Below, piece after piece: positions 18,887-40,855 of a stretch of 44,396 nucleotides of DNA. The notes under the pieces are model-generated. The model was not told the origin of the DNA and searched no databases. It was given only the letters and a program-made list of their open reading frames with translations. Source of the DNA: Candidatus Wolfebacteria bacterium RIFCSPLOWO2_01_FULL_38_11 (GTDB lineage Bacteria; Patescibacteriota; Minisyncoccia; UBA6257; UBA9933); assembly GCA_001793825.1 (NCBI GenBank), contig MGIQ01000023.1:3450-47845 (forward strand). The letters run 5' to 3'. The translations under genes and the position numbers were made by a program. Position 1 is the stretch's first letter. Every line of letters starts with the position of its first letter.

Positions 18887-20743
18887 ATGTCTCTCTTTAA
18901 ATTAAAATCAAAATTTAAACCATCTGGCGACCAGCCTCAAGCCATTAAAAAATTAATCGCAGGTCTTGAAAAAAGCGATCGTTTTCAAACTCTTTTGGGA
19001 GTTACCGGCTCCGGCAAGACTTTTACCATGGCTAATGTCATTGCTCATTTTAATATGCCGGTTTTGGTAATGGCCCCCAATAAAACTTTAGCCGCCCAGC
19101 TTTACCGCGAATACAAAAATTTCTTTCCCCAAAACTCCGTCAATTATTTCGTTTCTTATTACGACTATTATCAGCCCGAAGCTTATCTTCCCACCAGCGA
19201 CACTTATATAGAGAAAGAAGCGATGATTAATGAAGAAATTGATCGCTTGCGCCATCAAGCCACTAGCGCTCTTTTGAGCCGCCGCGATGTTATTGTGGTT
19301 GCTTCTGTTTCCTGCATTTACAATCTTGGCGTGCCAGTAAGTTATTCCGAAGCCGCTCTCCATTTGGAAGAAAATAAAGACATGACTCGCGGAGATTTAA
19401 TCAGGCAATTGGTAAAAATGCAATTTGAAAGAACTGGTGGAGCCTTAAAAAGGGGATTTTTCCGTGTTCGGGGCGATGTTTTTGAAATTATGCCTGCCAG
19501 CGGCGCTGTTATTAACAGGATTGAAATAAAAGAACAAAAAATTATTTCTATTGCTGATGTTGACCCAATTAGCCAAAAAATAATCCAAGAATTAAAAGAT
19601 ATTGTTATTTTTCCGCCCAAGCATTTTATTTCCAGCCAGCCTCAAATCGAATCCGCCACCAAAGAAATTAAAAAGGAATTAAAAGAGCGCTTACAATATT
19701 TTGAAAAAAACAAGCTTTATTTGGAAGCGGAACGATTAGAGCGAAGAACCAGATATGATATGGAAATGCTTCAAAGCATTGGTTATTGTCATGGCATTGA
19801 AAATTATTCTCGCCATCTTTCCGGAAAAATCAGCGGCGAATCGCCGGACACCTTGCTTTCTTATTTTCCTTCGGCTCGCCGAAGCCCCGGCGAAGAAGGC
19901 CACCCTGATTTTCTAACCATTATCGATGAATCTCATATTGCTGTTCCTCAAGTCAAAGGGATGTATGAGGGCGATAGAAGCCGTAAAGAGGTTTTAATCC
20001 AATACGGTTGGCGTCTGCCTTCTGCCTTGGATAATCGGCCGCTTAAATTCGAAGAATTTGAAAAAAGAATCAATCAGGTGATTTTTACTTCAGCCACTCC
20101 CGGCGCTTATGAAATGAAAAACTCTTCCAAAATTGTTGAACAAGTCATTCGGCCAACCGGCTTAATTGATCCGCCGATTGAAGTCCGTCCGGTTTTTAAC
20201 AAACAAAAAAATCGCAGTCAAATAGACGATCTAATGGAAGAAATAAAAAAAGTGGTCTCTAAAAAAGAGCGCGCCATTATCAACACGCTTACTAAAAAAA
20301 TGGCTGAAGATTTAACGGATTATTTAAAGAAAAAAAAGTTCAAAGCCAATTATATGCATTCAGAAACCAAAACTCTGGAGCGCGTTAAAATTCTGACCGA
20401 CTTCCGCTCCGGTAAGTTTGACGTTTTAATTGGCGTTAATCTTTTGCGGGAAGGATTGGATCTTCCTGAAGTGACTTTCGTGGCGATTTTGGACGCTGAC
20501 CGCGAAGGTTTTTTGCGTAGCGAATCGTCTATTATTCAAACCATGGGCCGCGCCGCCAGAAACGTTAATGGCAAAGTGATTTTATATGCTGATAATATTA
20601 CTGGCTCAATGAAGAGGGCGATTGATGAAGTTGAACGCAGAAGAAAAATTCAGGCGGAATATAACAAAAAACATAACATTACTCCTCAAAGTATTCACAA
20701 AGAAATTGAAAAACTTATAGAAATTGAAAATGAAAAAGAGTAA
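18887..20743 (+). CDS. uvrB: Excinuclease ABC subunit B
   Basis: 618 aa with GVTGSGKTFT, IIDESH, YGWRLPSALDNRPL and LREGLDLPEV. It contains an extra GC-rich segment at 19871-19903 (see findings). Confidence 0.95.
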   Translation: MSLFKLKSKFKPSGDQPQAIKKLIAGLEKSDRFQTLLGVTGSGKTFTMANVIAHFNMPVLVMAPNKTLAAQLYREYKNFFPQNSVNYFVSYYDYYQPEAYLPTSDTYIEKEAMINEEIDRLRHQATSALLSRRDVIVVASVSCIYNLGVPVSYSEAALHLEENKDMTRGDLIRQLVKMQFERTGGALKRGFFRVRGDVFEIMPASGAVINRIEIKEQKIISIADVDPISQKIIQELKDIVIFPPKHFISSQPQIESATKEIKKELKERLQYFEKNKLYLEAERLERRTRYDMEMLQSIGYCHGIENYSRHLSGKISGESPDTLLSYFPSARRSPGEEGHPDFLTIIDESHIAVPQVKGMYEGDRSRKEVLIQYGWRLPSALDNRPLKFEEFEKRINQVIFTSATPGAYEMKNSSKIVEQVIRPTGLIDPPIEVRPVFNKQKNRSQIDDLMEEIKKVVSKKERAIINTLTKKMAEDLTDYLKKKKFKANYMHSETKTLERVKILTDFRSGKFDVLIGVNLLREGLDLPEVTFVAILDADREGFLRSESSIIQTMGRAARNVNGKVILYADNITGSMKRAIDEVERRRKIQAEYNKKHNITPQSIHKEIEKLIEIENEKE

Positions 20744-23906: not shown

Positions 23907-23999
23907 TAAAAAACTTTTTTCTAAAAAGTGTTAGTTCTTTGAAATATTCGGAAAAACCCTTGGCGAAGGGTAAAAAAAAACCAAAAAAAGGAGAGTTAA

Positions 24000-24794
24000 A
24001 TGGAGAAAGAGCCGCAGTCAAAGCTGGACGTAAAGGAGTTCGCGAAAGGGCAGTTGGAGGCCTTAGGGAAGGAGCTGTTCAATGCGCTTCTTTTCATAAC
24101 CGCCTGTCTCGTGCGCCCCAACGGAGGAGTGATGATCATCGGAGCAAACGGGACCATCAGCGAGAGACTCCCGTTGGTCAATAATATAGACGGCACCTTC
24201 ATCACCTATGTCATGCTGACCCAGTATGACGGCGAGCAGATCGTCGCAGTCGGCCTGATCGGCAGGATGAGCGACAGCGTTAAGGAGGTAATCAGCCTGA
24301 TCGTCGGCAACATGAAAGAGCTGGGCATCGAAAGCGTATTCCTGCCCGGCTATCTCGGATACTCGTCCTTAAAGGTCCCTATGACTCACGTTTGCCGCGG
24401 GAGCAATCTCGATCAGCAGATAATACAGATCAAGGGTCCGGTGTTCTTCGACAACAACAATGACACCGTCTTGTTCACGCACGGCAAAGATATCATCGAA
24501 GTGCCGATGAGAGAAGCCTTCGGAAAGCTGAACTGGTCAGCCGTAAGTAGGAGGATCGGCGAGGTCAGCGACGAAATAACAGCGCTTGCCAGAGGAGCTG
24601 ATAGCTCTCTCATCATCAACACGACCGGCAAGTTCTATACGCTTAATCTGGAAGAGAAGAAAGTCAAACCCTTCTCTCTGCCGGCCGCGCTCGCTTCAAA
24701 GGCAACTCCGACCTTCTTCACCTTTACCGAAAGCAAGAAGTTCATCGCGGCTCTCTATGTCACCGGCCAGCTCACAATCGAAAGAGCCAGCTAA
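24000..24794 (+). CDS. Orphan hypothetical protein, compositionally foreign (~50% GC)
   Basis: 264 aa with SD GGAGAG upstream. No TM or signal peptide is visible and I recognise no family. Two hand-counted samples give 51-53% GC, against 35% in the adjacent uvrA 3' end. Codon usage is rich in CTG, ATC, GGC, GAC and AGC. Confidence 0.7.
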   Translation: MEKEPQSKLDVKEFAKGQLEALGKELFNALLFITACLVRPNGGVMIIGANGTISERLPLVNNIDGTFITYVMLTQYDGEQIVAVGLIGRMSDSVKEVISLIVGNMKELGIESVFLPGYLGYSSLKVPMTHVCRGSNLDQQIIQIKGPVFFDNNNDTVLFTHGKDIIEVPMREAFGKLNWSAVSRRIGEVSDEITALARGADSSLIINTTGKFYTLNLEEKKVKPFSLPAALASKATPTFFTFTESKKFIAALYVTGQLTIERAS

Positions 24795-24823: not shown

Positions 24824-24878
24824 AAAACCTTCGCCAAGGTTTTTAGCCCCGCATTTTTTAAAAATGCGGGGCTTCTTA
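24824..24878 (+). terminator. Tandem hairpin terminators after the orphan ORF
   Basis: AAAACCTT-CGCC-AAGGTTTT lies at 24824-24843. It is followed by AGCCCCGCATTTTT/AAAAATGCGGGGCT (24845-24872) and then TCTTATTT. Confidence 0.7.
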
Positions 24879-24915: not shown

Positions 24916-26127
24916 ATGAAGCTGATTGATCAGGCTAAAAAATTGCCTTTATCGCCCGGAGTCTATTTTTTTCTTAATAAAAAAAACGAAATTTTATATA
25001 TCGGCCGCGCTGTTTTTTTAAGGAAAAGAGTATTGAATTATTTCCAAAAAAACATTGACTCGCGCGTTGCCGAAATGATTCGTTCTGCTTCCAATATAAA
25101 ATTCAAAAAAACCGGCACTCTTTTAGAAGCCGTAATTTTAGAAGCTAATTTAATAAAAAAACACTGGCCCAAATATAATGTCAAAGAAAAAGATAATCGT
25201 TCTTTTATTTACATTGTTATTCCTAAAACCGATTACCCAAAGCCAATAATTGTTCGCGGACGCGAGCTGGAAAAATTTCCTTCCGCCACTGCTAAAATTT
25301 TCGGTCCCTATCAAAGTTTATCCCTTGTCAAAAGCGCTTTAAAAATTATTAGAAAAATTTTTCCCTACAGCACTTGTTTGCCTGCCAAAGCCTTGGCGAA
25401 GGCAGGCCGGCCTTTTTCCGACCAGCCTTGTTTTTATTATCAAATCGGTTTGTGTCCCGGCTTATGCATTGGCGCGATTTCCAAGAAAGAATACCAAAAA
25501 AACATAAAAAACATTATTTTGCTTTTATCCGGCCAAAAAAATAAATTAATAAAGGATTTACGAAAAGAAAATCCCGAAAAGGCCGGAGCTTTAAAACACA
25601 TCCAAGATGTCGCTTTGATTGCTGAAGCGGAAAAGGGATGGGCAGATGTCCAGAACCAAGGTTTAAAGCGCATTGAAGCCTATGACATTTCTCATTTGTC
25701 CGGAAAAGAAACTTATGGCTCAATGGCGGTTTTCTCTGGTAGCGAACCGGAAAAAAGCCAATATCGCTTGTTTAAAATAAAAACAGCTTTGCCATCCGAT
25801 GATTTACGGGCTTTGGAAGAGATGGTTTTAAGGCGCCTAAAACACAAAGAATGGACGCTTCCTGATTTGATTTTAATTGACGGCGGCAGTCCCCAAATCA
25901 ACTGGATTTCCGATGTTTTAAAAAGCCGGCGCTTAAATATTCCCCTGGTCGGCTTGGCAAAATCCGCCAGCCGGCGGAGCGGCGATAAATTGGTCTTTCC
26001 ACCCAAAACTAAAAAATCATTCAAGGAATTGGCGGATAGCATTAAAGGAATTTTGTTGAAATCCCGCGATGAAGCTCACCGCTTTGCTCTAAAATCCAGC
26101 CGCCGGTCAAGGAGAAGGCAATTTTAA
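24916..26127 (+). CDS. uvrC: Excinuclease ABC subunit C (short form lacking the C-terminal HhH2)
   Basis: 403 aa with the GIY-YIG N-terminus (PGVYFF...ILYIGRA), a Cys-rich region, and an endonuclease V-like domain (IEAYDISHLSG, DEAHRFA). It ends right after DEAHRFA. An extra segment lies at about 25384-25413. Confidence 0.9.
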   Translation: MKLIDQAKKLPLSPGVYFFLNKKNEILYIGRAVFLRKRVLNYFQKNIDSRVAEMIRSASNIKFKKTGTLLEAVILEANLIKKHWPKYNVKEKDNRSFIYIVIPKTDYPKPIIVRGRELEKFPSATAKIFGPYQSLSLVKSALKIIRKIFPYSTCLPAKALAKAGRPFSDQPCFYYQIGLCPGLCIGAISKKEYQKNIKNIILLLSGQKNKLIKDLRKENPEKAGALKHIQDVALIAEAEKGWADVQNQGLKRIEAYDISHLSGKETYGSMAVFSGSEPEKSQYRLFKIKTALPSDDLRALEEMVLRRLKHKEWTLPDLILIDGGSPQINWISDVLKSRRLNIPLVGLAKSASRRSGDKLVFPPKTKKSFKELADSIKGILLKSRDEAHRFALKSSRRSRRRQF

Positions 26128-28481: not shown

Positions 28482-29774
28482 ATGAAACTCAATCATCTTA
28501 AAAAATCCGACCCTCGGCTTTATAAATTAATTTCCGCCGAAATTAAAAGGCAGGACGAAACACTTGATTTAATCGCTTCGGAAAATTTTGTTTCTCCGGA
28601 AATTTTGGAAGTTTTGGGTTCGCCTTTAACCAATAAATATTCCGAAGGCTATCCGGGGAAACGTTATTATCCGGGAAATCTTTATTATGATGAAATTGAA
28701 GAATTAGCCAGAACTCGCGCCTTAAAAGCTTTTAAATTAAATTCAAAAAATTGGAGCGTTAATGTCCAGCCGTATTCCGGCTCTCCGGCCAATTTAGCGA
28801 TTTATTTTGCCTTAACAAAACCCGGCGATATTTTAATGGGAATGGATCTAGCAAGCGGCGGGCACTTAAGCCACGGTCATAAAGCCACTATTTCCGGAAA
28901 ACTTTTTAAATCAATCCAATATTCCGTTGATAAAAAAACTGGCTTAATAAATTATTCTGAAGTGGAAAAATTAGCCAAAAAACACAAACCAAGAATAATT
29001 ATTTCCGGTTATTCCGCTTATCCTAGAAAAATTGATTTTAAGAAATTTGGCGAAATTGCCAAAAGCGTTGGCGCATATCACTTGGCTGACATTTCTCATA
29101 TTGCCGGACTTGTTTCTGCCGGCTTTCATTCTTCGCCATTTCCTTATGCTGATGTGGTAATGACGACAACTCATAAAACTTTGCGCGGCCCAAGAGGAGC
29201 GGTGATATTTTCAAGAAAAGAAAAAATGCTTCATGCTTCAGGTTTTATGCTTCACGAAGCAATTGATAAAACGATTTTTCCAGGCATTCAAGGCGGCCCG
29301 CACAATAATGCTATTGCCGCCATTGCAGTTGCTTTTGGCGAAGCGCTAAAGCCGAATTTTAAAAAATATCAACAGCAAATAATTAAAAATGCCAGAGTCT
29401 TGGCGGAATCTTTAAAAAAATACGACTTTAATTTGGTTTCCGGCGGAACGGACAATCATTTGCTTTTAATTGATTTGAAAAATTTAGATATAGGAGGATT
29501 GGAAGCGGAAAAAATTTTAGAATCAGCTGGTATTATTGCCAACCGTAATTCTATTTCCGGCGACACTTCGCCTTTTAATCCCTCTGGCCTAAGATTAGGC
29601 GCGCCGGCTGTTACCACTAGGGGATTTAAAGAAAAAGAAATGAAAAAAATTGCTGACTGGATTTATCGGCTTTTAATCAAAAAAGAAAAACCTTCCTTAA
29701 TTAAGAAAGAAGTATTAAAATTATTAAAACAACGCCGTTTAAAAGGCCGGCCTTTAACAAATAAATACGAATAA
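28482..29774 (+). CDS. glyA: Serine hydroxymethyltransferase
   Basis: 430 aa with LIASENF, the PLP-lysine region TTTHKTLRGPRG and FPGIQGGPH. It has an extra heptamer-repeat segment at 29226-29261. Confidence 0.95.
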   Translation: MKLNHLKKSDPRLYKLISAEIKRQDETLDLIASENFVSPEILEVLGSPLTNKYSEGYPGKRYYPGNLYYDEIEELARTRALKAFKLNSKNWSVNVQPYSGSPANLAIYFALTKPGDILMGMDLASGGHLSHGHKATISGKLFKSIQYSVDKKTGLINYSEVEKLAKKHKPRIIISGYSAYPRKIDFKKFGEIAKSVGAYHLADISHIAGLVSAGFHSSPFPYADVVMTTTHKTLRGPRGAVIFSRKEKMLHASGFMLHEAIDKTIFPGIQGGPHNNAIAAIAVAFGEALKPNFKKYQQQIIKNARVLAESLKKYDFNLVSGGTDNHLLLIDLKNLDIGGLEAEKILESAGIIANRNSISGDTSPFNPSGLRLGAPAVTTRGFKEKEMKKIADWIYRLLIKKEKPSLIKKEVLKLLKQRRLKGRPLTNKYE

Positions 29775-30723: not shown

Positions 30724-30757
30724 AAGGCTTTGGAGATAATCTCCAAAGCCTTTTTTT
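30724..30757. terminator. Bidirectional terminator between the small-gene island and rtcB
   Basis: AAGGCTTTGGAGAT (30724-30737) pairs perfectly with ATCTCCAAAGCCTT (30739-30752), followed by a T-run. The flanking genes are convergent. Confidence 0.8.
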
Positions 30758-32252
30758 ATTCTCCTTTAATTACCGCCAAAGGCACTAAACGCGCCACTTT
30801 TTTAGAAAGATTGGCCTGATGCACTATTTCCACCACTTCATCAATATCTTTGTATGCCTGCGGCGCCTCTTCGGCAATTCCTCTTATTGAATAACATTTA
30901 ACGATAATATTTTTATTTTCGAGATTTTTTATAATTTCTTGCCCTTTTAAAGTTTTTAGAGCTTGGTGCCGTGACATTGTTCGACCAGCTCCGTGGCAAG
31001 AGCTGTAAAAAGCTTCTTTTCCTTTTTCTGTTCCGTGCAAAATATAGGAAGCCGTGCCCATAGAACCCGGAATAATCACCGGCTGGCCGATTTCTTTATA
31101 TTTCTTGGGAATTTCCGGATGACTCGGCGGACTTTGTCTCGCCGTAGGCTCGCTTCGTCCAGCCGAAGGCGGAAAAGCCCGAGTTGCGCCTTTTCTATGA
31201 ACCAATAATCCGTCTTCTAATTTGGCAATATTATGGGCAACATCATATAGAACTTCCAGATTTTCATTATTTTCATTGAGAAAAACTTTTTTCCAGCTTT
31301 CTCTTATGTAGTGAGTAATCATTTGCCGATTAGCCCAGGCAAAATTTGCCCCACAAGCCATTGCTTTGAAAAATTTCTGGCCTTCCGGCGAATTAAACGG
31401 CGCGCAAGCCAATTCTTTATCCGGAAGATGAATATTGTATTTCGGCATTACTTGGAGCATTAATCTTATATAATCAGTGGCGATTTGGTGTCCTAATCCG
31501 CGACTGCCGGTATGAATCATTACAACCGCTTGATTTTTGAACAGTCCGAAAATTTTCGCGGCGTTTTCGTCAAAAATTTCCTCCACTTTCTGGATTTCCA
31601 AAAAATGATTGCCGCTGCCAAGCGTGCCAACTTGATCTCTGCCTCTATTTTTAGCGGTATCTGAAACTTCATTGGCATCCGCCCATTCCAATCGGCCGTT
31701 AGCTTCGCAATTTTCCATATCTTCTTTTTTGCCGTAACCTTGTTTTATTAGTTCTTGTGCTCCATTTTCCAAAATTTTATCCAACTCATTGACGCTCAAT
31801 TTTATTTTTCTGCCTCGGCCTAGTCCGGAAGGAACATTTCTTTGGATTTCCGTTGCCAAATCATCCAATCGATTTTTGATTTCATCGGCCGAAACATCGG
31901 ATTTTAATAATCTAACCCCGCAATTTATGTCGTAGCCCACGGCGCCGGGAGAAATTATACCGCTTGCCTCGCTGGAGCCTTGGCGAAGCGGGTCAGAAGC
32001 GCGAGTGGCAAAAACTCCGCCAATCGGCGAGCCGTATCCTTCATGGACATCAGGCATTACTAGCGCGTATTTTTCAATGCCCGGAAGTGTGGTTAAATTC
32101 ACTAATTGTTCTAGCGATTTATCCTTAAAAACCGATTCCAGCATTTTTTCGCTGGCGTAAATTCTGGCTGGAACTCTCATATCGCTTCGGAAAGTTTTCG
32201 GTATTTCCCATAGATAATCGCTTATTTTTATAAGATTATTTTTTGCAATCAT
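30756..32252 (-). CDS. rtcB: RNA-splicing ligase RtcB (3'-phosphate/5'-hydroxyl RNA ligase)
   Basis: 498 aa with MPDVHEGYG, GYDINCGVR, GSGNHF, HTGSRGLGHQ, HRKGATRAF, PGSMGTASY and SSCHGAGR. It has two extra GC-rich segments (see findings). Confidence 0.95.
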   Translation of the reverse strand: MIAKNNLIKISDYLWEIPKTFRSDMRVPARIYASEKMLESVFKDKSLEQLVNLTTLPGIEKYALVMPDVHEGYGSPIGGVFATRASDPLRQGSSEASGIISPGAVGYDINCGVRLLKSDVSADEIKNRLDDLATEIQRNVPSGLGRGRKIKLSVNELDKILENGAQELIKQGYGKKEDMENCEANGRLEWADANEVSDTAKNRGRDQVGTLGSGNHFLEIQKVEEIFDENAAKIFGLFKNQAVVMIHTGSRGLGHQIATDYIRLMLQVMPKYNIHLPDKELACAPFNSPEGQKFFKAMACGANFAWANRQMITHYIRESWKKVFLNENNENLEVLYDVAHNIAKLEDGLLVHRKGATRAFPPSAGRSEPTARQSPPSHPEIPKKYKEIGQPVIIPGSMGTASYILHGTEKGKEAFYSSCHGAGRTMSRHQALKTLKGQEIIKNLENKNIIVKCYSIRGIAEEAPQAYKDIDEVVEIVHQANLSKKVARLVPLAVIKGE

Positions 32253-32297: not shown

Positions 32298-32723
32298 TTA
32301 AATATCAAAAACTAAATTCGTCAGCCATATTCCTTTGATTTTTTTTATATCCAAATCTTCATAAGTAATCGCTTTTATGTCTTCATCAAATTTTTCAACC
32401 GGATATTTTGTTAATTCTGCCTGAAATTCGTGTTTCTCCCGTACTACTTTATACTTACTACTTACTACTAAATAAACGCATTTATTAATCTGTGATTTTG
32501 CCAAAATTTCACTCAAAAAATCCACCAAAAGAGAATTGATGTCAATTGATTTTAATTTAATTCTTAATTCTAAATTCTTAATTCTTAATTCAGATTTCAT
32601 CGCCGTCGGCGATAAAATCTGCGCCATTGCCTCAGTGGCGCTAGAAAACAATTCTTCAATTGTTTTTCCGTAAATTCGCAGGCGAAGCTCCGCCGGATGG
32701 GGAAGAATTTCATATTTTTTCAT
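32298..32723 (-). CDS. Archease (RtcB activator)
   Basis: 141 aa with the N-terminal HPAELRLRIYGKTIEELF and C-terminal IKAITYEDL patterns typical of archease. It is adjacent to rtcB. Confidence 0.85.
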   Translation of the reverse strand: MKKYEILPHPAELRLRIYGKTIEELFSSATEAMAQILSPTAMKSELRIKNLELRIKLKSIDINSLLVDFLSEILAKSQINKCVYLVVSSKYKVVREKHEFQAELTKYPVEKFDEDIKAITYEDLDIKKIKGIWLTNLVFDI

Positions 32724-32741
32724 ATCAGGATTCTTAAATTT

Positions 32742-32783
32742 GTTTATTCGTAAATTCGTAATTAATTCGTTATTCGCTGATTT
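32742..32783. repeat. AT-rich TTCGTA-type element, copy C (half element)
   Basis: GTTTATTCGTAAATTCGTAATTAATTCGTTATTCGCTGATTT matches 1775-1818 apart from a 2-nt indel and one substitution. It overlaps the last six codons and the stop of murE. Confidence 0.85.
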
Positions 32784-34126
32784 AATATTTCTTCAATAAT
32801 TTTCCCTTCATCCCATGGAATTTTCTGATTATTTTCCACACACATCCAGGATTCTCCGCCTTTGCCCGTTAAAATCACCACATCTCCTTTTTTTGCCAAA
32901 TAAATCGCTTTTTTAATTGCCTCTAGACGGTCAATAATTTTATATAAATTCTGAATTCGTGAGAATCCGCTTTCTATATTATTTATAATATCAAGCGGAT
33001 TCTCGTCGTACGGGTCTTCATTGGTTAAAATAATTTTGTCACAATATTTTTCTGCAATTTTCCCCATTTGCGGCCGTTTCCATTTATCTCTGCCTCCTCC
33101 CTGCGCTCCCAATAAGCAGATTAATTTTGACTTGCGCTTGGCGATTTGCGCTTCATTTATTGTTTTATAGACCGCTTCCAAGCTCGCTGGTTCATGGGCA
33201 TAATCGATGATGATAGTAAAATCATTTTTTTTATCTATTCGTATGTGCCTATTCGTTAAGGCTTTCGCATATATAATTTCCATTCTTCCGTTCGGCGCTT
33301 TGGCTTCTTTCAGGGCTTTTCTGATTTTTTCCTTTGAAATATTTTGAGACCAAGCAGCGCAAATCGCCGCCGCTGCGTTGTAAACATTGAATTTGCCAAT
33401 AAACGGCAATTCAAATTTCTCTTTGTTGGCCGTAAATTCCGTTTTGTTTGCGCTTAATTTGATTTTGGATATTTTTAAAATATTATTAATTTTCAATTTT
33501 TCGCCATTTACTTTTGACTTGGTTGTATATCCATACTTTTGCCATAGTTTAGGCTCAAGAAAAAATTCAACATTTTCATCGTCTAAATTATAAATACCAA
33601 TGCCGGTTTTTTTATGAGCCACTTTTTCAAAAAGTTTTATCTTGGCAGCGCGGTAATTTTCAAAATTTCCATGGCGTTCAATATGTTCCGGCGATAAATT
33701 GGTAAAAACTGCCGCGTCATAATCAATAAACTTATGCCGATATTGCAAGATTCCTTCCGACGATGTTTCCACCACTGCGTATTTGCATTCTTCTTTCTGC
33801 ATTTGATAAAGCAATTTTTGCAGCTGAAATCTGCCAAGCATTGTTTGTTTGGTTTCATTTTTCCATTCTTTATTTCCAATTCGAAAATTAACAGTCGTCG
33901 CCATTCCGGTTTTAAATTCCGCGGAATTGAATATTTGGGCGATTAAATTGCAGGTTGTGGTTTTACCTTTTGTTCCAATCACGCCAATCACAGTCATTTT
34001 CTCGGAAGGAAATCCGTAAAAAAAAGCCGCCAAGTAAGCTAAAGAAAAATGGTAAATCGGTTGGATTAGTCGATAAAGTCTTTTTGGAATTAAATATTTT
34101 TCAATAAATCTTAAAAAATTTTCCAT
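32762..34126 (-). CDS. murE: Mur ligase, most likely UDP-MurNAc-L-Ala-D-Glu:2,6-diaminopimelate (or L-Lys) ligase
   Basis: 454 aa with GVIGTKGKTTT, DYAHEP, and TNEDPYDE, which resembles the MurE TSDNPR region. The amino-acid specificity cannot be determined from this. Confidence 0.75.
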   Translation of the reverse strand: MENFLRFIEKYLIPKRLYRLIQPIYHFSLAYLAAFFYGFPSEKMTVIGVIGTKGKTTTCNLIAQIFNSAEFKTGMATTVNFRIGNKEWKNETKQTMLGRFQLQKLLYQMQKEECKYAVVETSSEGILQYRHKFIDYDAAVFTNLSPEHIERHGNFENYRAAKIKLFEKVAHKKTGIGIYNLDDENVEFFLEPKLWQKYGYTTKSKVNGEKLKINNILKISKIKLSANKTEFTANKEKFELPFIGKFNVYNAAAAICAAWSQNISKEKIRKALKEAKAPNGRMEIIYAKALTNRHIRIDKKNDFTIIIDYAHEPASLEAVYKTINEAQIAKRKSKLICLLGAQGGGRDKWKRPQMGKIAEKYCDKIILTNEDPYDENPLDIINNIESGFSRIQNLYKIIDRLEAIKKAIYLAKKGDVVILTGKGGESWMCVENNQKIPWDEGKIIEEILNQRITN

Positions 34127-39337: not shown

Positions 39338-40855
39338 TTATCTGCTGATTAATTTAAGAAGTGCTCTATATAAGTTTGACCCGAGATTTGTCGTTGTTTC
39401 CGTTGGAGCTGTTTCTGGCGGATTCGTATAGGTGTTGGAATCAATCTCATTCGGCGCAATGTAAGTATTTATATCTGTAGTCGGTTGGGGATAATATTGG
39501 GTCGGATATCCGGAAGTTCCTTCTAATGGAATATAGTTGTAATTTTTATCAATAATTTTTTGATTGTAATAATCGGGAGATTTTTGTTCGTAATATTGCT
39601 GGTGATACTGTTGTTGATATTGCTGTTCGTAATTTTTATATCCTTCAAAATTTTGCTGATTATAATAAGATGCGCATTCTTCTTGTGATTTGCAATCAAT
39701 TGGAACGCCTTCGGGCAATCGATACTCATAATCTTTTATTCCACCCATTTCTTCACCTCCTCTCGTTTGATGATAATTTTCAAAGCATTTTCTCATTGTC
39801 TCGCCGACATCTTCTCTTACTGAGCTGAAATCACTGCTTCGGATTTTCTCGATTATTTCCGGTCCTAAGTTCGCTTTTAAGCATTCCGAGACTTCCGGAG
39901 GCGCGTTATTTATCATTTCTTTCATTTTATTCATTCCCTCGCCCATATTTTCCATACCGCTTTGCTTCATTCTTTCTATTTCTTCTTCACTCACGAGTCC
40001 AGCTTCTTTGGCAAAATTCATACATTCCTCCATATGAGATGAGTCAGAACAATAATTTTCGCATTCTTCTTTGCCCTTGCAGCCGCCCGGAGTGTTCCCC
40101 GATTTCATCAAAGACATCATTTTTCTCGCTTCTTCCACTTCTTCTTTGGGGATAAATCCGGCTGTCACGGCAAAATTCATACACTCCTCCATATGAGATT
40201 CTTCGGAACAATAAGATTCGCAATCTTTTTTATTCCTGCAGTTTCCCGGCGGCGTTAATCCGGACGCCATAGCTTTAGCCGCTTTCTTGGCGTCTTCTAA
40301 TTCATCTTCTGGAATCAGCCCTGCTTTTTCCGCAAAAGCCAAACATTCATTTATATGAGACATATCATTGCAATAAGTTTCGCATTCTTCTTTATTTTTG
40401 CAGCCACCCGGCAACTCTGCTCCTTCTCTTAAGGCAGCGGCTACTTTTTTTGCTTCTTCCAGTTCTTCCTCAAGCATTAAATCATGTTCTTCCGCGAAAG
40501 CCAGACACTCGTTCATATGAGAAGTGCTGTTGCAATAAGTTTCACATTCTTCTTTATTTTTGCAGCCGCCCGGCCCTTCTCCGATTTCCGTCACTACTCT
40601 TGCGCGTTTTGCGTCTTCCGTAGACATCAGCCCGTTTTTTTCGGCGAAATCAATGCAAACAGGCATATTTTTTTCTTCATCGCAATAATCTTTGCATTCT
40701 TCTTCACTCGTGCAATTGCCGAGTTCTGCGACGGGAAAAGTTATTTTATCAATTTGAGCTTGTGCGATAATTGAATAACCGGCAAAAATTCCGGTCATTA
40801 TTATTAAAAGAGCTAAAATCAAATTAAAGCTAAAATGATTTTTAAATATTTTCAT
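39338..40855 (-). CDS. Secreted tandem-repeat Cys-rich protein with Q/Y/N-rich C-terminal tail
   Basis: 505 aa with a signal peptide (..SIIAQA|Q). It has five ~53-54-aa modules of the form GGCKNKEECExYCxxxSHMxECxxFAxxxGL..EE.EEAKK, each with 4 Cys. These are followed by YEQQYQQQYHQQYYEQ...YPTQYYPQP low complexity. Confidence 0.75.
   Translation of the reverse strand: MKIFKNHFSFNLILALLIIMTGIFAGYSIIAQAQIDKITFPVAELGNCTSEEECKDYCDEEKNMPVCIDFAEKNGLMSTEDAKRARVVTEIGEGPGGCKNKEECETYCNSTSHMNECLAFAEEHDLMLEEELEEAKKVAAALREGAELPGGCKNKEECETYCNDMSHINECLAFAEKAGLIPEDELEDAKKAAKAMASGLTPPGNCRNKKDCESYCSEESHMEECMNFAVTAGFIPKEEVEEARKMMSLMKSGNTPGGCKGKEECENYCSDSSHMEECMNFAKEAGLVSEEEIERMKQSGMENMGEGMNKMKEMINNAPPEVSECLKANLGPEIIEKIRSSDFSSVREDVGETMRKCFENYHQTRGGEEMGGIKDYEYRLPEGVPIDCKSQEECASYYNQQNFEGYKNYEQQYQQQYHQQYYEQKSPDYYNQKIIDKNYNYIPLEGTSGYPTQYYPQPTTDINTYIAPNEIDSNTYTNPPETAPTETTTNLGSNLYRALLKLISR
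39930..40726 (-). repeat. Intragenic tandem repeat, period 159-162 nt, about 5 copies (approximate bounds)
   Basis: GCAATAAGTTTCGCATTCTTCTTTATTTTTGCAGCC at 40370 recurs nearly identically at 40532 (offset 162). More diverged copies lie at 40208 and 40049. Confidence 0.8.

Follow-up and report, generated by a model that had tools for sequence, protein, structure and literature searches.

The palindromic elements of Rickettsia (RPEs), among which RPE-1 measures about 100-150 bp, are perhaps the most natural object of comparison for the element treated here. RPEs are palindromic repeats lying in frame inside ORFs (Ogata et al. 2000, summarised in PMC3733652); the proteins of RPE-bearing ORFs, of which uvrB of R. 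conorii is one, are probably still functional, the RPE-1 inserts are longer palindromic insertions, and RPE sequences end in a CGTC tag (PMC3733652). The window analysed here, which is the whole stretch of 44,396 nucleotides from the genome of a tiny groundwater bacterium of Candidatus Wolfebacteria, resembles this situation in that ORFs of conserved proteins contain a palindromic repeat in frame, the genome being likewise small, AT-rich and gene-dense. The element of the window, however, is only 30 nt long and has no CGTC tag, and while RPEs have been described in Rickettsia, its core is met in metagenome contigs whose GC content spans 31-74% and also in viral ones.

REPs are GC-rich stem-loops of 20-40 bp with GTAG or CGTC at one end; they are associated with RAYT, reach high copy number, lie mostly outside genes and sometimes within them, and are said to fall into families that vary from one species or strain to another (Di Nocera et al. 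2013, PMC3733652). Both RPEs and intragenic REPs favour uvrA and uvrB as hosts (PMC3733652). Like a REP, the window element is an imperfect palindrome in the range of 20-40 bp that forms a stem-loop and has a conserved tetranucleotide at one end, but this tag is CTTG, neither GTAG nor CGTC. Furthermore, all of its copies detected in the window by our covariance model R2 (see below) are intragenic whereas REPs are predominantly extragenic and present in high copy number, and its core, unlike those of REPs, is the same in contigs that differ greatly from one another.

MITEs generate target-site duplications. Those of the Correia/NEMIS, RUP and ERIC families and others are 70-300 bp long with terminal inverted repeats of 15-30 bp (PMC3733652). 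The window element shares with them that it is a small, non-autonomous and structured repeat able to overlap genes, but it is a single 30-nt hairpin, and no flank is duplicated at its clean insertions of 30 nt in uvrC and rtcB. Short GC-rich hairpin inserts in AT-rich genomes, coding regions included, are also known as the GC clusters or 'byp' elements of yeast mitochondria; byp elements do not have to be in frame, and the ribosome skips them. These are alike in the kind of insert and in the AT-rich genome that harbors it, and differ in being organellar. As for the window inserts, plain translation can be inferred as the simplest reading, because all of them are multiples of three and free of stops. 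Since the sequence tag and the size do not fit, the window element is to be regarded as an analogue, not a member, of RPE/REP, and the repeat looks like an undescribed relative of these selfish palindromic elements. A full-text search of the literature with the element sequence and six consensus peptides gave no description of it, and none of the six peptides appears in the supplementary lists of PMC3733652.

The repeat unit and its copies in the window

The repeat unit is an imperfect hairpin of about 30 nt with the consensus CTTG-YCCGCC-GAAGCCTTGGCGAA-GGCGGR, its parts being a GC stem of 6 bp, a symmetric internal loop (GAA/GAA) and a short inner hairpin that varies in length. The first-pass annotation, made from the sequence of the window alone, had regarded the palindrome CCTTCGGCTNNNCGAAGC as the repeat, and this has to be replaced by the longer unit. 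Its 18-mer CTTCGGCTCGCCGAAGC was also tried as the unit and abandoned: with up to 3 mismatches, it finds only the uvrB-site and rtcB copies in the window plus about 137 kb of loci. The informative motif is the GCCGAAGCC..GGCGAAGGC core, which overlaps that 18-mer. The flanks of metagenome copies delimit the unit sharply at 30-33 nt, and position counts over 115-116 aligned copies place C-T-T-G 5' of the stem and let the conserved bases end at +23. The outer stem covaries: both sides have changed in 53 cells, whereas shuffles give 17.4 +/- 3.0 and none of the 500 is as high. The consensus folds at -16.7 kcal/mol with a z-score of -2.6, and the other folding z-scores are modest (-0.8 to -1.8); folding was therefore dropped as stand-alone evidence.

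The 30 nt of the consensus correspond to 10 codons, and its six-frame translation has no stop at all. Therefore, an ORF that receives the element gains about ten small or charged residues and the gene is not broken. The window copies alone, four or five in number in uvrB, uvrC and rtcB, use four of the six reading frames and occur in both orientations relative to the host gene, so that the repeat is indeed defined at the DNA level and not at the peptide level, as had been supposed; the four copies detected by R2 all stand on one DNA strand.

The inserts were defined by comparison with orthologues and structures, independently of their own sequences. Against syntenic orthologues, there are 6 additional codons in uvrB (83% GC), 10 and 4 in uvrC (63% and 83% GC), and 14 and 10 in rtcB (64% and 70% GC), within host genes of 39-42% GC, and the lengths of the window inserts (33, 30, 12, 42 and 30 nt) are without exception multiples of three. 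The five inserts resemble each other more than GC-matched controls do (mean best 18-mer match 13.3 versus 11.3, among 40 GC-rich islands of the window); the observed likeness is reached in 0 of 20,000 permutations, and uvrB and rtcB make the top pair. The first covariance model, R1, came from copies chosen by exact match and thus penalised variation of the core too strongly, for which reason it was replaced by R2, built from 17 variant copies and 10 seeds, none of them from the window. R2 gives four matches with E <0.05 in the window, which are exactly four orthologue-defined GC-rich inserts, and the next match has an E-value of 1.7, although these values are rough because of shortened calibrations. 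No match to R2 exists in 77 kb taken from two syntenic relatives and the same-genome flanks; the syntenic relatives, L005 and L010, have none of the window inserts, and the approximately 11 kb of the same genome beyond the window contain no further copy. In about 55 kb of the genome examined, the four R2 copies, every one intragenic, are thus confined to 12 kb, and the remaining 43 kb or so are free of them.

A near-consensus element, TTGCCTGCCAAAGCCTTGGCGAAGGCAGGC, is located in uvrC (403 aa; 24916..26127, plus strand), whose identical gene in L007 matches GIY-YIG, UvrC_M and UvrC_RNaseH_dom of Pfam. It occupies 25378..25407 on the plus strand as a clean 10-codon insertion relative to L005 and L010, is read in element frame 1 as LPAKALAKAG, shows a compensatory C-G to T-A change in the stem, includes the exact 20-mer of the metagenome contigs described below, and is recognized by both models (R1, 43.5 bits, E 1e-7; R2, 40.3 bits, E 2.6e-7, at 25372-25413). 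The other insert of uvrC, the 12-nt AGCCGGCGGAGC (SRRS; 25969-25980, plus strand), is a 4-codon insertion relative to the same two genomes and belongs to a mini-hairpin, TCCGCC-AGCC-GGCGGA (25963..25980, plus strand), which is the outer stem of the 30-nt element without the centre; under R1, this outer stem alone aligns (13.5 bits, E 0.59). The 14-mer CCGCCAGCYGGCGG of the mini-hairpin is inserted also in uvrA of L010 and in uvrA, uvrB and uvrC of L073.

In rtcB (498 aa; 30756..32252, minus strand; E 3e-154 by phmmer against PDB RtcB), the alignment with PDB RtcB leaves two gaps of 14 and 10 residues. The former corresponds to the 42-nt insert PSAGRSEPTARQSP (31128..31169, minus strand), a copy with a longer inner hairpin whose element runs along the plus strand and which R2 detects at 31129-31180 (plus strand; 24.1 bits, E 0.0014). 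This insert is found neither in L010 nor in most of 120 RtcB homologues, and is repeated twice in tandem in L007 and L008, strains that are 99.7% identical; over the 21.5 kb of this identity, there is only one indel besides the duplication. The latter is a 30-nt insert (31962..31991, minus strand; PLRQGSSEAS), with the element GCTTGCCTCGCTGGAGCCTTGGCGAAGCGG along the plus strand, and is a clean 10-codon insertion relative to L010 and L009, read in reverse frame 2 (consensus RLRQGFGGQ) and found by R1 (21.9 bits, E 0.008) as well as R2 (20.8 bits, E 0.008; 31959-31999). The likeness between uvrB and rtcB had been noticed from the beginning as an 18-mer matching at 15 of 18 positions, and the actual figure is 16/18 with 2 mismatches (rtcB 31152-31169, minus strand), a match that falls within the 42-nt insert. 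The 18-mer has 2 matches in the window while 0.01 is expected from shuffles, and both copies are read as P-S-A-x-R-S just as claimed.

Outside genes, the window has only two hairpins related to the element, both of them mini-hairpins without assigned strand and conserved in L005: ACCCTT-GGCG-AAGGGT (23956..23971), which is terminator-like and has the 12-nt core CCTTGGCGAAGG, and AACCTT-CGCC-AAGGTT (24826..24842), which has the same core in the opposite orientation.

The insert of uvrB and its site in relatives

The ORF of uvrB (618 aa; 18887..20743, plus strand; E 5e-231 by phmmer against PDB UvrB chains), whose product is 100% identical with protein P0001, is translated around the insert as ...TLLSYFP-SARRSPGEEGH-PDFLTIIDESH. 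The 33-nt, GC-rich and in-frame insert SARRSPGEEGH (19871..19903, plus strand) is in element frame 0, for which the consensus peptide is LARRSLGEGG, and the peptides spanning its junctions in UvrB are ISGESPDTLLSYFPSAR and SPGEEGHPDFLTIIDESHIAVPQVK. The first-pass annotation had estimated about 11 extra residues relative to E. coli UvrB, and phmmer places an 11-residue gap exactly at SARRSPGEEGH, the chains compared being 9gy7_E and 2fdc_A, not E. coli UvrB. Its count of 24 G/C in 33 is also right, but the gene was said to be about 35% GC and actually has 39.6%, in a window of 38.1%. The perfect hairpin CTTCGG-CTCG-CCGAAG is present as described (19869..19884, plus strand); however, its two arms would differ in origin, since the 5' arm (CCTTC) is probably for the most part native F-P-S coding sequence, and the 3' arm is the core of the element. 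RNAfold on 19862-19909 prefers another pairing, CCUUC/GAAGG plus UCGCCG/CGGCGA, at -16.2 kcal/mol, and the folding z-score of this segment is only -1.8 against dinucleotide shuffles. With such a z-score the uvrB hairpin alone is not remarkable, and it becomes notable through its membership in a repeat family.

What is the evidence for this membership? R2, which contains no sequence of the window, finds the copy at 19870-19903 on the plus strand with 17.7 bits (E 0.045, fourth best in the window), while R1 gives only a weak match of 8.7 bits (E 7) on the minus strand. Bases 19874-19895 are identical with the independent consensus at 19 of 22 positions, which is the third best local alignment in the window, with a score of 16 against a background of 6.4 +/- 1.7. 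As far as such sequence matches can tell, the uvrB insert is a decayed member of the family of the 30-nt hairpin element. In the AlphaFold model, the loop is a coil just before the strand of motif II, with pLDDT <50 at residues 332-336.

Closer relatives among Patescibacteria usually have the loop YFPxKNGKPDF, which the uvrB loop of the window exceeds by only 6 codons, and the site varies in length across the group, most members having a loop of 5-6 residues. L001 and L003 have homologous inserts at this very site, for which R1 gives 24.8 and 26 bits, and the three uvrB-site copies have the derived bases CTTCGRCTYGCC in common; they may all go back to one ancient insertion that later suffered partial deletions, and not to several insertions. 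For every UvrB that bears the insert there are closer relatives, 80-88% identical, that lack it, and P0001 and P0003 differ by two amino acids, one of which is inside the 11-residue insert. When uvrB loci of Patescibacteria amounting to 1.41 Mb are searched with R1, only 4 copies have E <1. The distribution of the family across these loci is patchy.

Copies in other organisms

The 20-mer GCCRAAGCCTTGGCRAAGGC occurs exactly in at least 120 metagenome contigs, whose GC content ranges from 31 to 74%, and in 26 viral contigs, compared with 0 and 2 for two composition-matched control 20-mers. Because the metagenome set was chosen by exact match, conservation of the core within it is uninformative. 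According to Pfam, the element lies inside a domain or linker of ThyA, the LeuRS editing domain, a tyrosine recombinase, an HhH-GPD glycosylase, the RecG wedge domain, an ABC ATPase, NadE, TGT and an ExoIII-like nuclease, and the host genes in GC-rich contigs are PurL, PabB-PabC and the MutL linker. The early proposal of a repeated element tolerated in frame in unrelated conserved proteins, in the manner of RPEs, is thus borne out by uvrB, uvrC, rtcB and many genes elsewhere. A near-identical core in organisms of such different GC content is unusual for REP-like elements, and no explanation for it was found.

PLSDB plasmids give only partial matches at chance level (best E 2e-3, most 0.07-0.9), and the element is therefore considered not to be on plasmids of cultured bacteria. 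Rfam has nothing at the gathering threshold in the window, and in 7 loci no match up to an E-value of 1 falls on the element. The sole Rfam match nearby is a DUF805b motif beside a hairpin cluster in L120.

Interpretation of the inserts

Taken together, it is probable that the 33-nt segment of uvrB is an old and partly decayed copy of a short dispersed repeat of about 30 nt, of the selfish or neutral REP/RPE kind. How could such a repeat spread and persist? We infer that the element would be selfish or neutral DNA of this kind, that its inserts would be translated as neutral loops, and that only those copies which fall into permissive surface loops would survive, the survivors being those in uvrB, uvrC and rtcB. 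Its spread might be due to a single-strand hairpin transposase acting in trans, or to template switching onto another copy, primed by microhomology. At some sites, native sequences do resemble an arm of the element: rtcB has TCCGCC, and in relatives the empty sites of uvrB have GGCGG. The description of the element as possibly mobile can be kept only in part: it is repeated, is missing from close relatives and changes in copy number between strains, but neither a Y1/HUH transposase nor RAYT is among the Pfam annotations of genes in the 55 kb or so examined, and neither a target-site duplication nor a conserved target motif is seen at the copies. Since no pair of near-identical genomes with an empty and a filled site for the 30-nt unit is available, mobility is inferred, not demonstrated.

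Another possibility is that the repeat is a selected nucleic-acid signal and has been spread via recombination and selection, not as selfish DNA. It could then bind a protein, serve as an uptake-type site, adjust the expression of repair genes as an RNase- or terminator-like structure, or act as a signal in replication or recombination. The covariation of the stem and the near-invariant core across organisms of 31-74% GC can be understood in this way, and so can the same core in the conserved terminator-like intergenic hairpins of the window and L005, the copies directly 3' of tmRNA genes in L165 and L112, the common DNA strand of the four window copies, and the concentration in repair genes (uvrA, uvrB, uvrC, rtcB, mutL, recG, glycosylase and ExoIII-like). 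However, an enzyme that recognizes the hairpin would equally demand covariation, host genes and positions are otherwise unrelated, and no Rfam family matches. Copies also decay as in uvrB, duplicate as in rtcB, and are missing from close relatives with the same gene order, and we regard a selected signal as unlikely.

Could the inserts instead have arisen locally and de novo, by snap-back or template-switch copying of neighbouring sequence in inverted form, so that their likeness is a convergence from the flanks (TTTCC..., CCGCC) and from GC-rich codon palindromes? Indeed, CGAAG in uvrB pairs with native CTTCG, GGCGGA in uvrC with TCCGCC, and the L003 insert with both of its flanks, while the arm TCCGCC in rtcB coincides with native F-P-P codons and GGCGG is already there in the empty uvrB sites; moreover, 12-nt mini-hairpins are too small for conventional mobile elements. 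Such microhomology at the sites, however, fits templated copying from another copy just as well. The uvrC copy and the second rtcB copy hold both arms within the insert, between unrelated flanks, models made from outside copies recover exactly the four window inserts, and a sharply bordered sequence of 20-30 nt recurs in at least 120 contexts whose flanks are unrelated. For the inserts as a whole, local origin is thus given little credence; on the grounds of the metagenome scan and the covariance models, it was rejected for the 30-nt copies only, and not for the 12-nt CCGCCAGCYGGCGG hairpins.

It is very hard to believe that the insert is a lineage-specific addition to UvrB selected as a peptide, whose GC content would come merely from codons for Ala, Arg, Gly, Pro and Ser. 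The length variation of the UvrB site in Patescibacteria, with its mostly 5-6-residue loop, and the similar peptides made from different DNA (SARRS in uvrB and SASRRS in uvrC) would agree with such selection, but the same DNA gives the unrelated peptides LPAKALAKAG, PLRQGSSEAS and SARRSPGEEG in different frames and orientations, the nearest relatives do without the insert, a substitution at the strain level lies within it, and the predicted loop is a coil of low confidence. An artefact of assembly or sequencing, for example chimeric insertion of an abundant GC-rich sequence, can practically be dismissed, for nothing specific speaks for it apart from the origin of the data in a metagenome assembly, whereas the same inserts are present in independent NCBI, JGI and ENA assemblies (L007, L008, L093; P0001 on 8 contigs) and are all exact multiples of three in otherwise conserved ORFs.

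If the reading as a dispersed selfish or neutral repeat is extended beyond the window, one may think, only tentatively and with considerable doubt, of an undescribed superfamily of minimal 'frame-neutral' mobile hairpins, which are 30 nt long, open in six frames and tagged by CTTG, have a near-identical core in ultra-small Patescibacteria, GC-rich soil and sediment bacteria and viral contigs, prefer repair genes (uvrA, uvrB, uvrC, rtcB, mutL, recG, glycosylase, ExoIII), and owe their mobility to templated repair or to an unknown enzyme that acts in trans on single-strand DNA. If this is true, the bias would mean that hairpin elements and the repair machinery are truly connected. A bias of REPs toward repair genes was noted already in 2013 without explanation (PMC3733652), and the recurrence in uvr and other repair genes, unexpected in itself, echoes that observation. 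It is also unexpected for REP-like repeats that the sequence of a 30-mer should be conserved among very different organisms and viruses. What enzyme recognizes the hairpin, and why are repair genes favoured? These questions can now be tested.

In streamlined Patescibacteria, which have almost no intergenic space, an in-frame and stop-free element would show a way in which selfish DNA persists, and a frame-neutral element would supply lineage-specific protein loops at the same time. Inserts of this kind inflate the apparent divergence of proteins, give length polymorphisms at the strain level as in rtcB, and can mislead alignment, phylogeny and structure prediction for proteins of uncultured bacteria. 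As a minor point, the 3' half of the element may have a 12-nt resemblance to a conserved segment of 16S rRNA, which was not used as an argument here.

GC-rich insertions in three repair genes

The uvrB reading frame (18887-20743, + strand, 618 aa) matches solved UvrB structures over its full length (E 5e-231), and the roughly 11 extra residues claimed in the first-pass annotation appear there as a single 11-residue gap, exactly SARRSPGEEGH, directly preceding FLTIIDESH. The site reads TAT TTT CCT TCG GCT CGC CGA AGC CCC GGC GAA GAA GGC CAC CCT GAT TTT. As had been noticed, 24 of the 33 bases at 19871-19903 are G or C and a perfect hairpin, CTTCGG-CTCG-CCGAAG, lies at 19869-19884; the gene was said to be otherwise about 35% GC, but measures 39.6% in a window of 38.1%. 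The 18-mer holding this palindrome (19868-19885) does recur in rtcB (31152-31169, minus strand), with P-S-A-x-R-S read from both copies, and the agreement is 16 of 18 positions (two mismatches) rather than the 15 once counted; the window contains two matches against 0.01 expected by chance. Structurally, the uvrB stretch does not stand out (-16.2 kcal/mol, z -1.8), and the hairpin is partly native F-P-S codons (CCTTC) paired with the GAAG of the repeat element described below.

All indels of at least three residues were listed by pairwise alignment of the window proteins with their orthologues in two syntenic relatives, L005 (a groundwater MAG, UvrB 79% identical) and L010 (GCA_964368375.1, RtcB 80% identical), and DNA of several further UvrB and RtcB homologues was also drawn on. 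The GC-rich indels are five inserts, not one: ARRSPG in uvrB (as seen against L005; 18 nt, 83% GC), LPAKALAKAG (30 nt, 63% GC) and SRRS (12 nt, 83% GC) in uvrC, and PPSAGRSEPTARQS (42 nt, 64% GC) and PLRQGSSEAS (30 nt, 70% GC) in rtcB (30756-32252, - strand), the last two being gaps against Pyrococcus RtcB structures as well. Remaining indels, in both directions, are mostly of average or AT-rich composition. DNA alignments with the orthologues reveal clean whole-codon additions, without flank duplication in uvrC or at the second rtcB site. The window has 40 GC-rich islands of 30 nt, and among them the five inserts are mutually more alike than GC-matched controls, a value reached in none of 20,000 permutations, and uvrB and rtcB form the best-matching pair. 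All copies in the window fall within three nucleic-acid repair genes, about 12% of its coding DNA.

Two minor features of these proteins may be recorded here. Both UvrB and UvrC (24916-26127, + strand, 403 aa) are short, without a match to the Pfam UVR domain; therefore, the usual UvrB-UvrC contact domain may be absent from both. SHMT (28482-29774) carries at residues 248-256 an AT-rich insert of nine residues relative to L010, KMLHASGFM, which creates an internal MLH...MLH duplication.

A bounded, structured repeat and its members

A core, GCCRAAGCCTTGGCRAAGGC, is common to the uvrC insert, the second rtcB insert (+ strand) and the uvrB insert of another lineage (L003). The exact 20-mer occurs in at least 120 public metagenome contigs of 31-74% GC, from which the copy set was chosen by this exact match, and in 26 viral contigs against 0 and 2 for two composition-matched control 20-mers. 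In an alignment of 115-116 copies the conserved stretch spans -9 to +23, beyond which it breaks off sharply, and gives the consensus (GG)CTTG-YCCGCC-GAAGCCTTGGCGAA-GGCGGR(T). The three outer-stem pairs free of the search pattern covary, one of them being C-G in 54 copies and U-A in 32, and changes on both sides of the stem fill 53 cells against 17.4 +/- 3.0 after shuffling (a value that none of 500 shuffles reached). The outer stem and the two GAAG motifs persist in variant copies, whose inner hairpins differ in length and sequence. The element is demonstrably a bounded, structured repeat. All six frames of its 30-nt consensus are free of stop codons, and their peptides are LARRSLGEGG, LPAEALAKA, CPPKPWRRR, PAFAKASAGK, PPSPRLRRA and RLRQGFGGQ; frame 0 is read in uvrB (SARRSPGEEG), frame 1 in uvrC (LPAKALAKAG) and reverse frame 2 in rtcB (PLRQG...), all insertions being in frame and stop-free.

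Membership of the window inserts was judged with a covariance model of 27 copies from other organisms (17 variants and 10 seeds), which excludes the window sequence and any uvrB-site copy and was run across the entire window with filters off. Four matches have E below 0.05, all on the + strand: uvrC 25372-25413 (40.3 bits, E 2.6e-7), rtcB 31129-31180 (24.1 bits, E 0.0014) and 31959-31999 (20.8 bits, E 0.0083), and uvrB 19870-19903 (17.7 bits, E 0.045). The next has E 1.7; short calibrations make these values rough. The four are exactly the larger insertions found by orthologue comparison, and the model matched nothing in 77 kb drawn from the two syntenic relatives and from the sequence flanking the window in this genome. 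Plain local alignment of the consensus likewise places uvrC, rtcB and uvrB on top (scores 23, 21 and 16; background 6.4 +/- 1.7), with 19 of 22 positions matching in uvrB. An earlier, stricter model, built from exact-match copies, gives 24.8 and 26 bits to uvrB-site copies of two other lineages (L001 and L003) and only 8.7 bits to that of the window. From these comparisons, the uvrB insert very probably belongs to the 30-nt family as a decayed copy. The four detected copies run along the + strand despite rtcB lying on the - strand, which may reflect a strand or replication bias, if four copies can tell.

A mini-version of 12-14 nt, CCGCCAGCYGGCGG, retains only the outer stem and encodes PPAGG or SRRS; it is inserted in uvrC of the window (25963-25978), in uvrA of L010 (19974-19987) and in uvrA, uvrB and uvrC of a single other genome (L073 10988-11001, 12773-12786, 15493-15506). 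By Pfam, copies of the element on AT-rich contigs lie inside domains or linkers of ThyA, the LeuRS editing domain, a tyrosine recombinase, an HhH-GPD glycosylase, the RecG wedge domain, an ABC ATPase, NadE, TGT and an ExoIII-like nuclease. Others, in PurL, PabB-PabC and a MutL linker, are on contigs of 57-66% GC, which are unlikely to be Patescibacteria. The element-bearing LeuRS gene (L172 9488-11995) also holds another insert, IARSEATKQSRGDSSDGIASSRLIVGTRNDR, which looks like yet another repeat family. On a further contig (L120 440-570), related hairpins (CCACCTTCGTTAAAGCTTCGGTGG and similar) are clustered directly upstream of a DUF805b RNA motif (42.2 bits).

The UvrB site in relatives and change between strains

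The position YFP^...^DFLTIIDESH is variable in length among 120 UvrB homologues from Patescibacteria, most of which have xKNGKP. Homologous 33-nt inserts are found in two other lineages, GCT TCG GCT CGC CGA AGC GGC AGC GAA GGC GGC in L001 and CCT TCG ACT TGC CGA AGC CTT GGC AAA GGC GGC in L003. The three insert-bearing UvrBs are mutually only about 77% identical, and for each there are closer relatives, at 80-88% identity, that lack the insert. The idea of a repeated element would have failed if all close relatives shared a homologous, non-palindromic loop; this is not the case, and presence of the element is clearly lineage-specific. Empty sites read TTC GGC GGG (L215), TTT GGA GGC (L216) and TCT AAA GGC GGG (L005). 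These sequences would fit a single ancient insertion whose later partial deletions spared a GGCGG arm, and would also fit repeated insertion beside a pre-existing GGCGG.

An AlphaFold2 model predicts coil at the insert, immediately ahead of the motif II strand, and pLDDT falls below 50 at residues 332-336. Other genomes have different, unrelated GC-rich repeats in this loop, which therefore tolerates insertions. A longer, different repeat (L006 384-2357 and 3546-6215; proteins P0024, P0089, P0099), with peptides like INADxxADKxGYQRKSASxQRxSAL, sits in frame in this loop in three genomes and also in uvrA of L006. This repeat distinguishes the UvrBs P0099 and P0053, which share 96% identity, and this points to its recent gain or loss.

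Copy number of the element itself changes at the strain level. The window RtcB shares 97% identity with a Candidatus Wolfebacteria bacterium GW2011_GWC1_37_10 protein, and L007 (LBSR01000001.1) is 99.7% identical to window 20756-42243. Against two assemblies at this identity, from NCBI and JGI, the window has only two indels in 21.5 kb. At one of them, both assemblies carry the 42-nt rtcB insert as a perfect tandem repeat: PSAGRSEPTARQSP is single in the window (31128-31169) and stands twice in L007 (11085-11168). Between UvrBs P0001 and P0003, one of the two amino-acid differences is inside the 11-residue insert. Among the matches listed, about 15 of 100 metagenome contigs have a second copy within a few kb. 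Apart from the element, a gene on the - strand (39338-40855, around 39602) has four to six tandem repeats of about 160 nt encoding Cys-rich units, and a 9-nt indel relative to L007.

Likeness to known repeats, spread and possible function

REPs are 20-40 bp repeats tagged with GTAG or CGTC; reported examples inside genes include uvrB of R. conorii and uvrA of Thioalkalivibrio and Opitutus, and some such repeats were equated with Rickettsia RPEs (Di Nocera et al., 2013; PMC3733652). The present element behaves like REPs and RPEs, but its tag is CTTG instead of the defining ones, and RPE-1 is much longer. The roughly 55 kb of this genome examined show no RAYT. The consensus peptides are absent from the lists of that paper, Rfam has no match, the element was not found among sequenced plasmids, and no description of its sequence or peptides was found in the open full-text literature. 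Because of the different tag and size and these negative searches, we class it as a new type of a known kind of repeat, an analogue of REPs and RPEs.

How might such an element spread? A trans-acting enzyme could recognize the folded single strand, as RAYT does for REPs; the covarying stem, the conserved 5' tag and the lack of target duplication would suit this, and so would, only suggestively with n=4, the shared strand of the window copies. Alternatively, repair or replication could duplicate the element from an existing copy, primed by microhomology; native stretches that look like one of its arms, at the rtcB and uvrB sites, would suit this.

We infer, from sequence alone, that the inserts end up in the proteins as neutral surface loops and that the element is selfish or neutral. 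A selected function of the hairpin at the DNA or RNA level is not excluded. On two GC-rich contigs the element directly follows the terminal 3' CCA of a tmRNA gene, at the place expected for a terminator (L165 6215-6611; L112 1774-2160). Its core also forms conserved terminator-like hairpins, with the 12-nt core CCTTGGCGAAGG, between uvrA and uvrC in the window (23956-23971, 24826-24842), flanking an unknown ORF (24000-24794), and these are kept in L005 (15292-15306, 16197-16211), at 79% UvrB identity. Besides this element, the window has a second repeat family, AT-rich and intergenic (255-371, 1730-1818, 32722-32810), made of imperfect palindromes of CGAATA/TTCGTA words, in which, for example, the arms 314-368 and 1730-1784 are 93% complementary.
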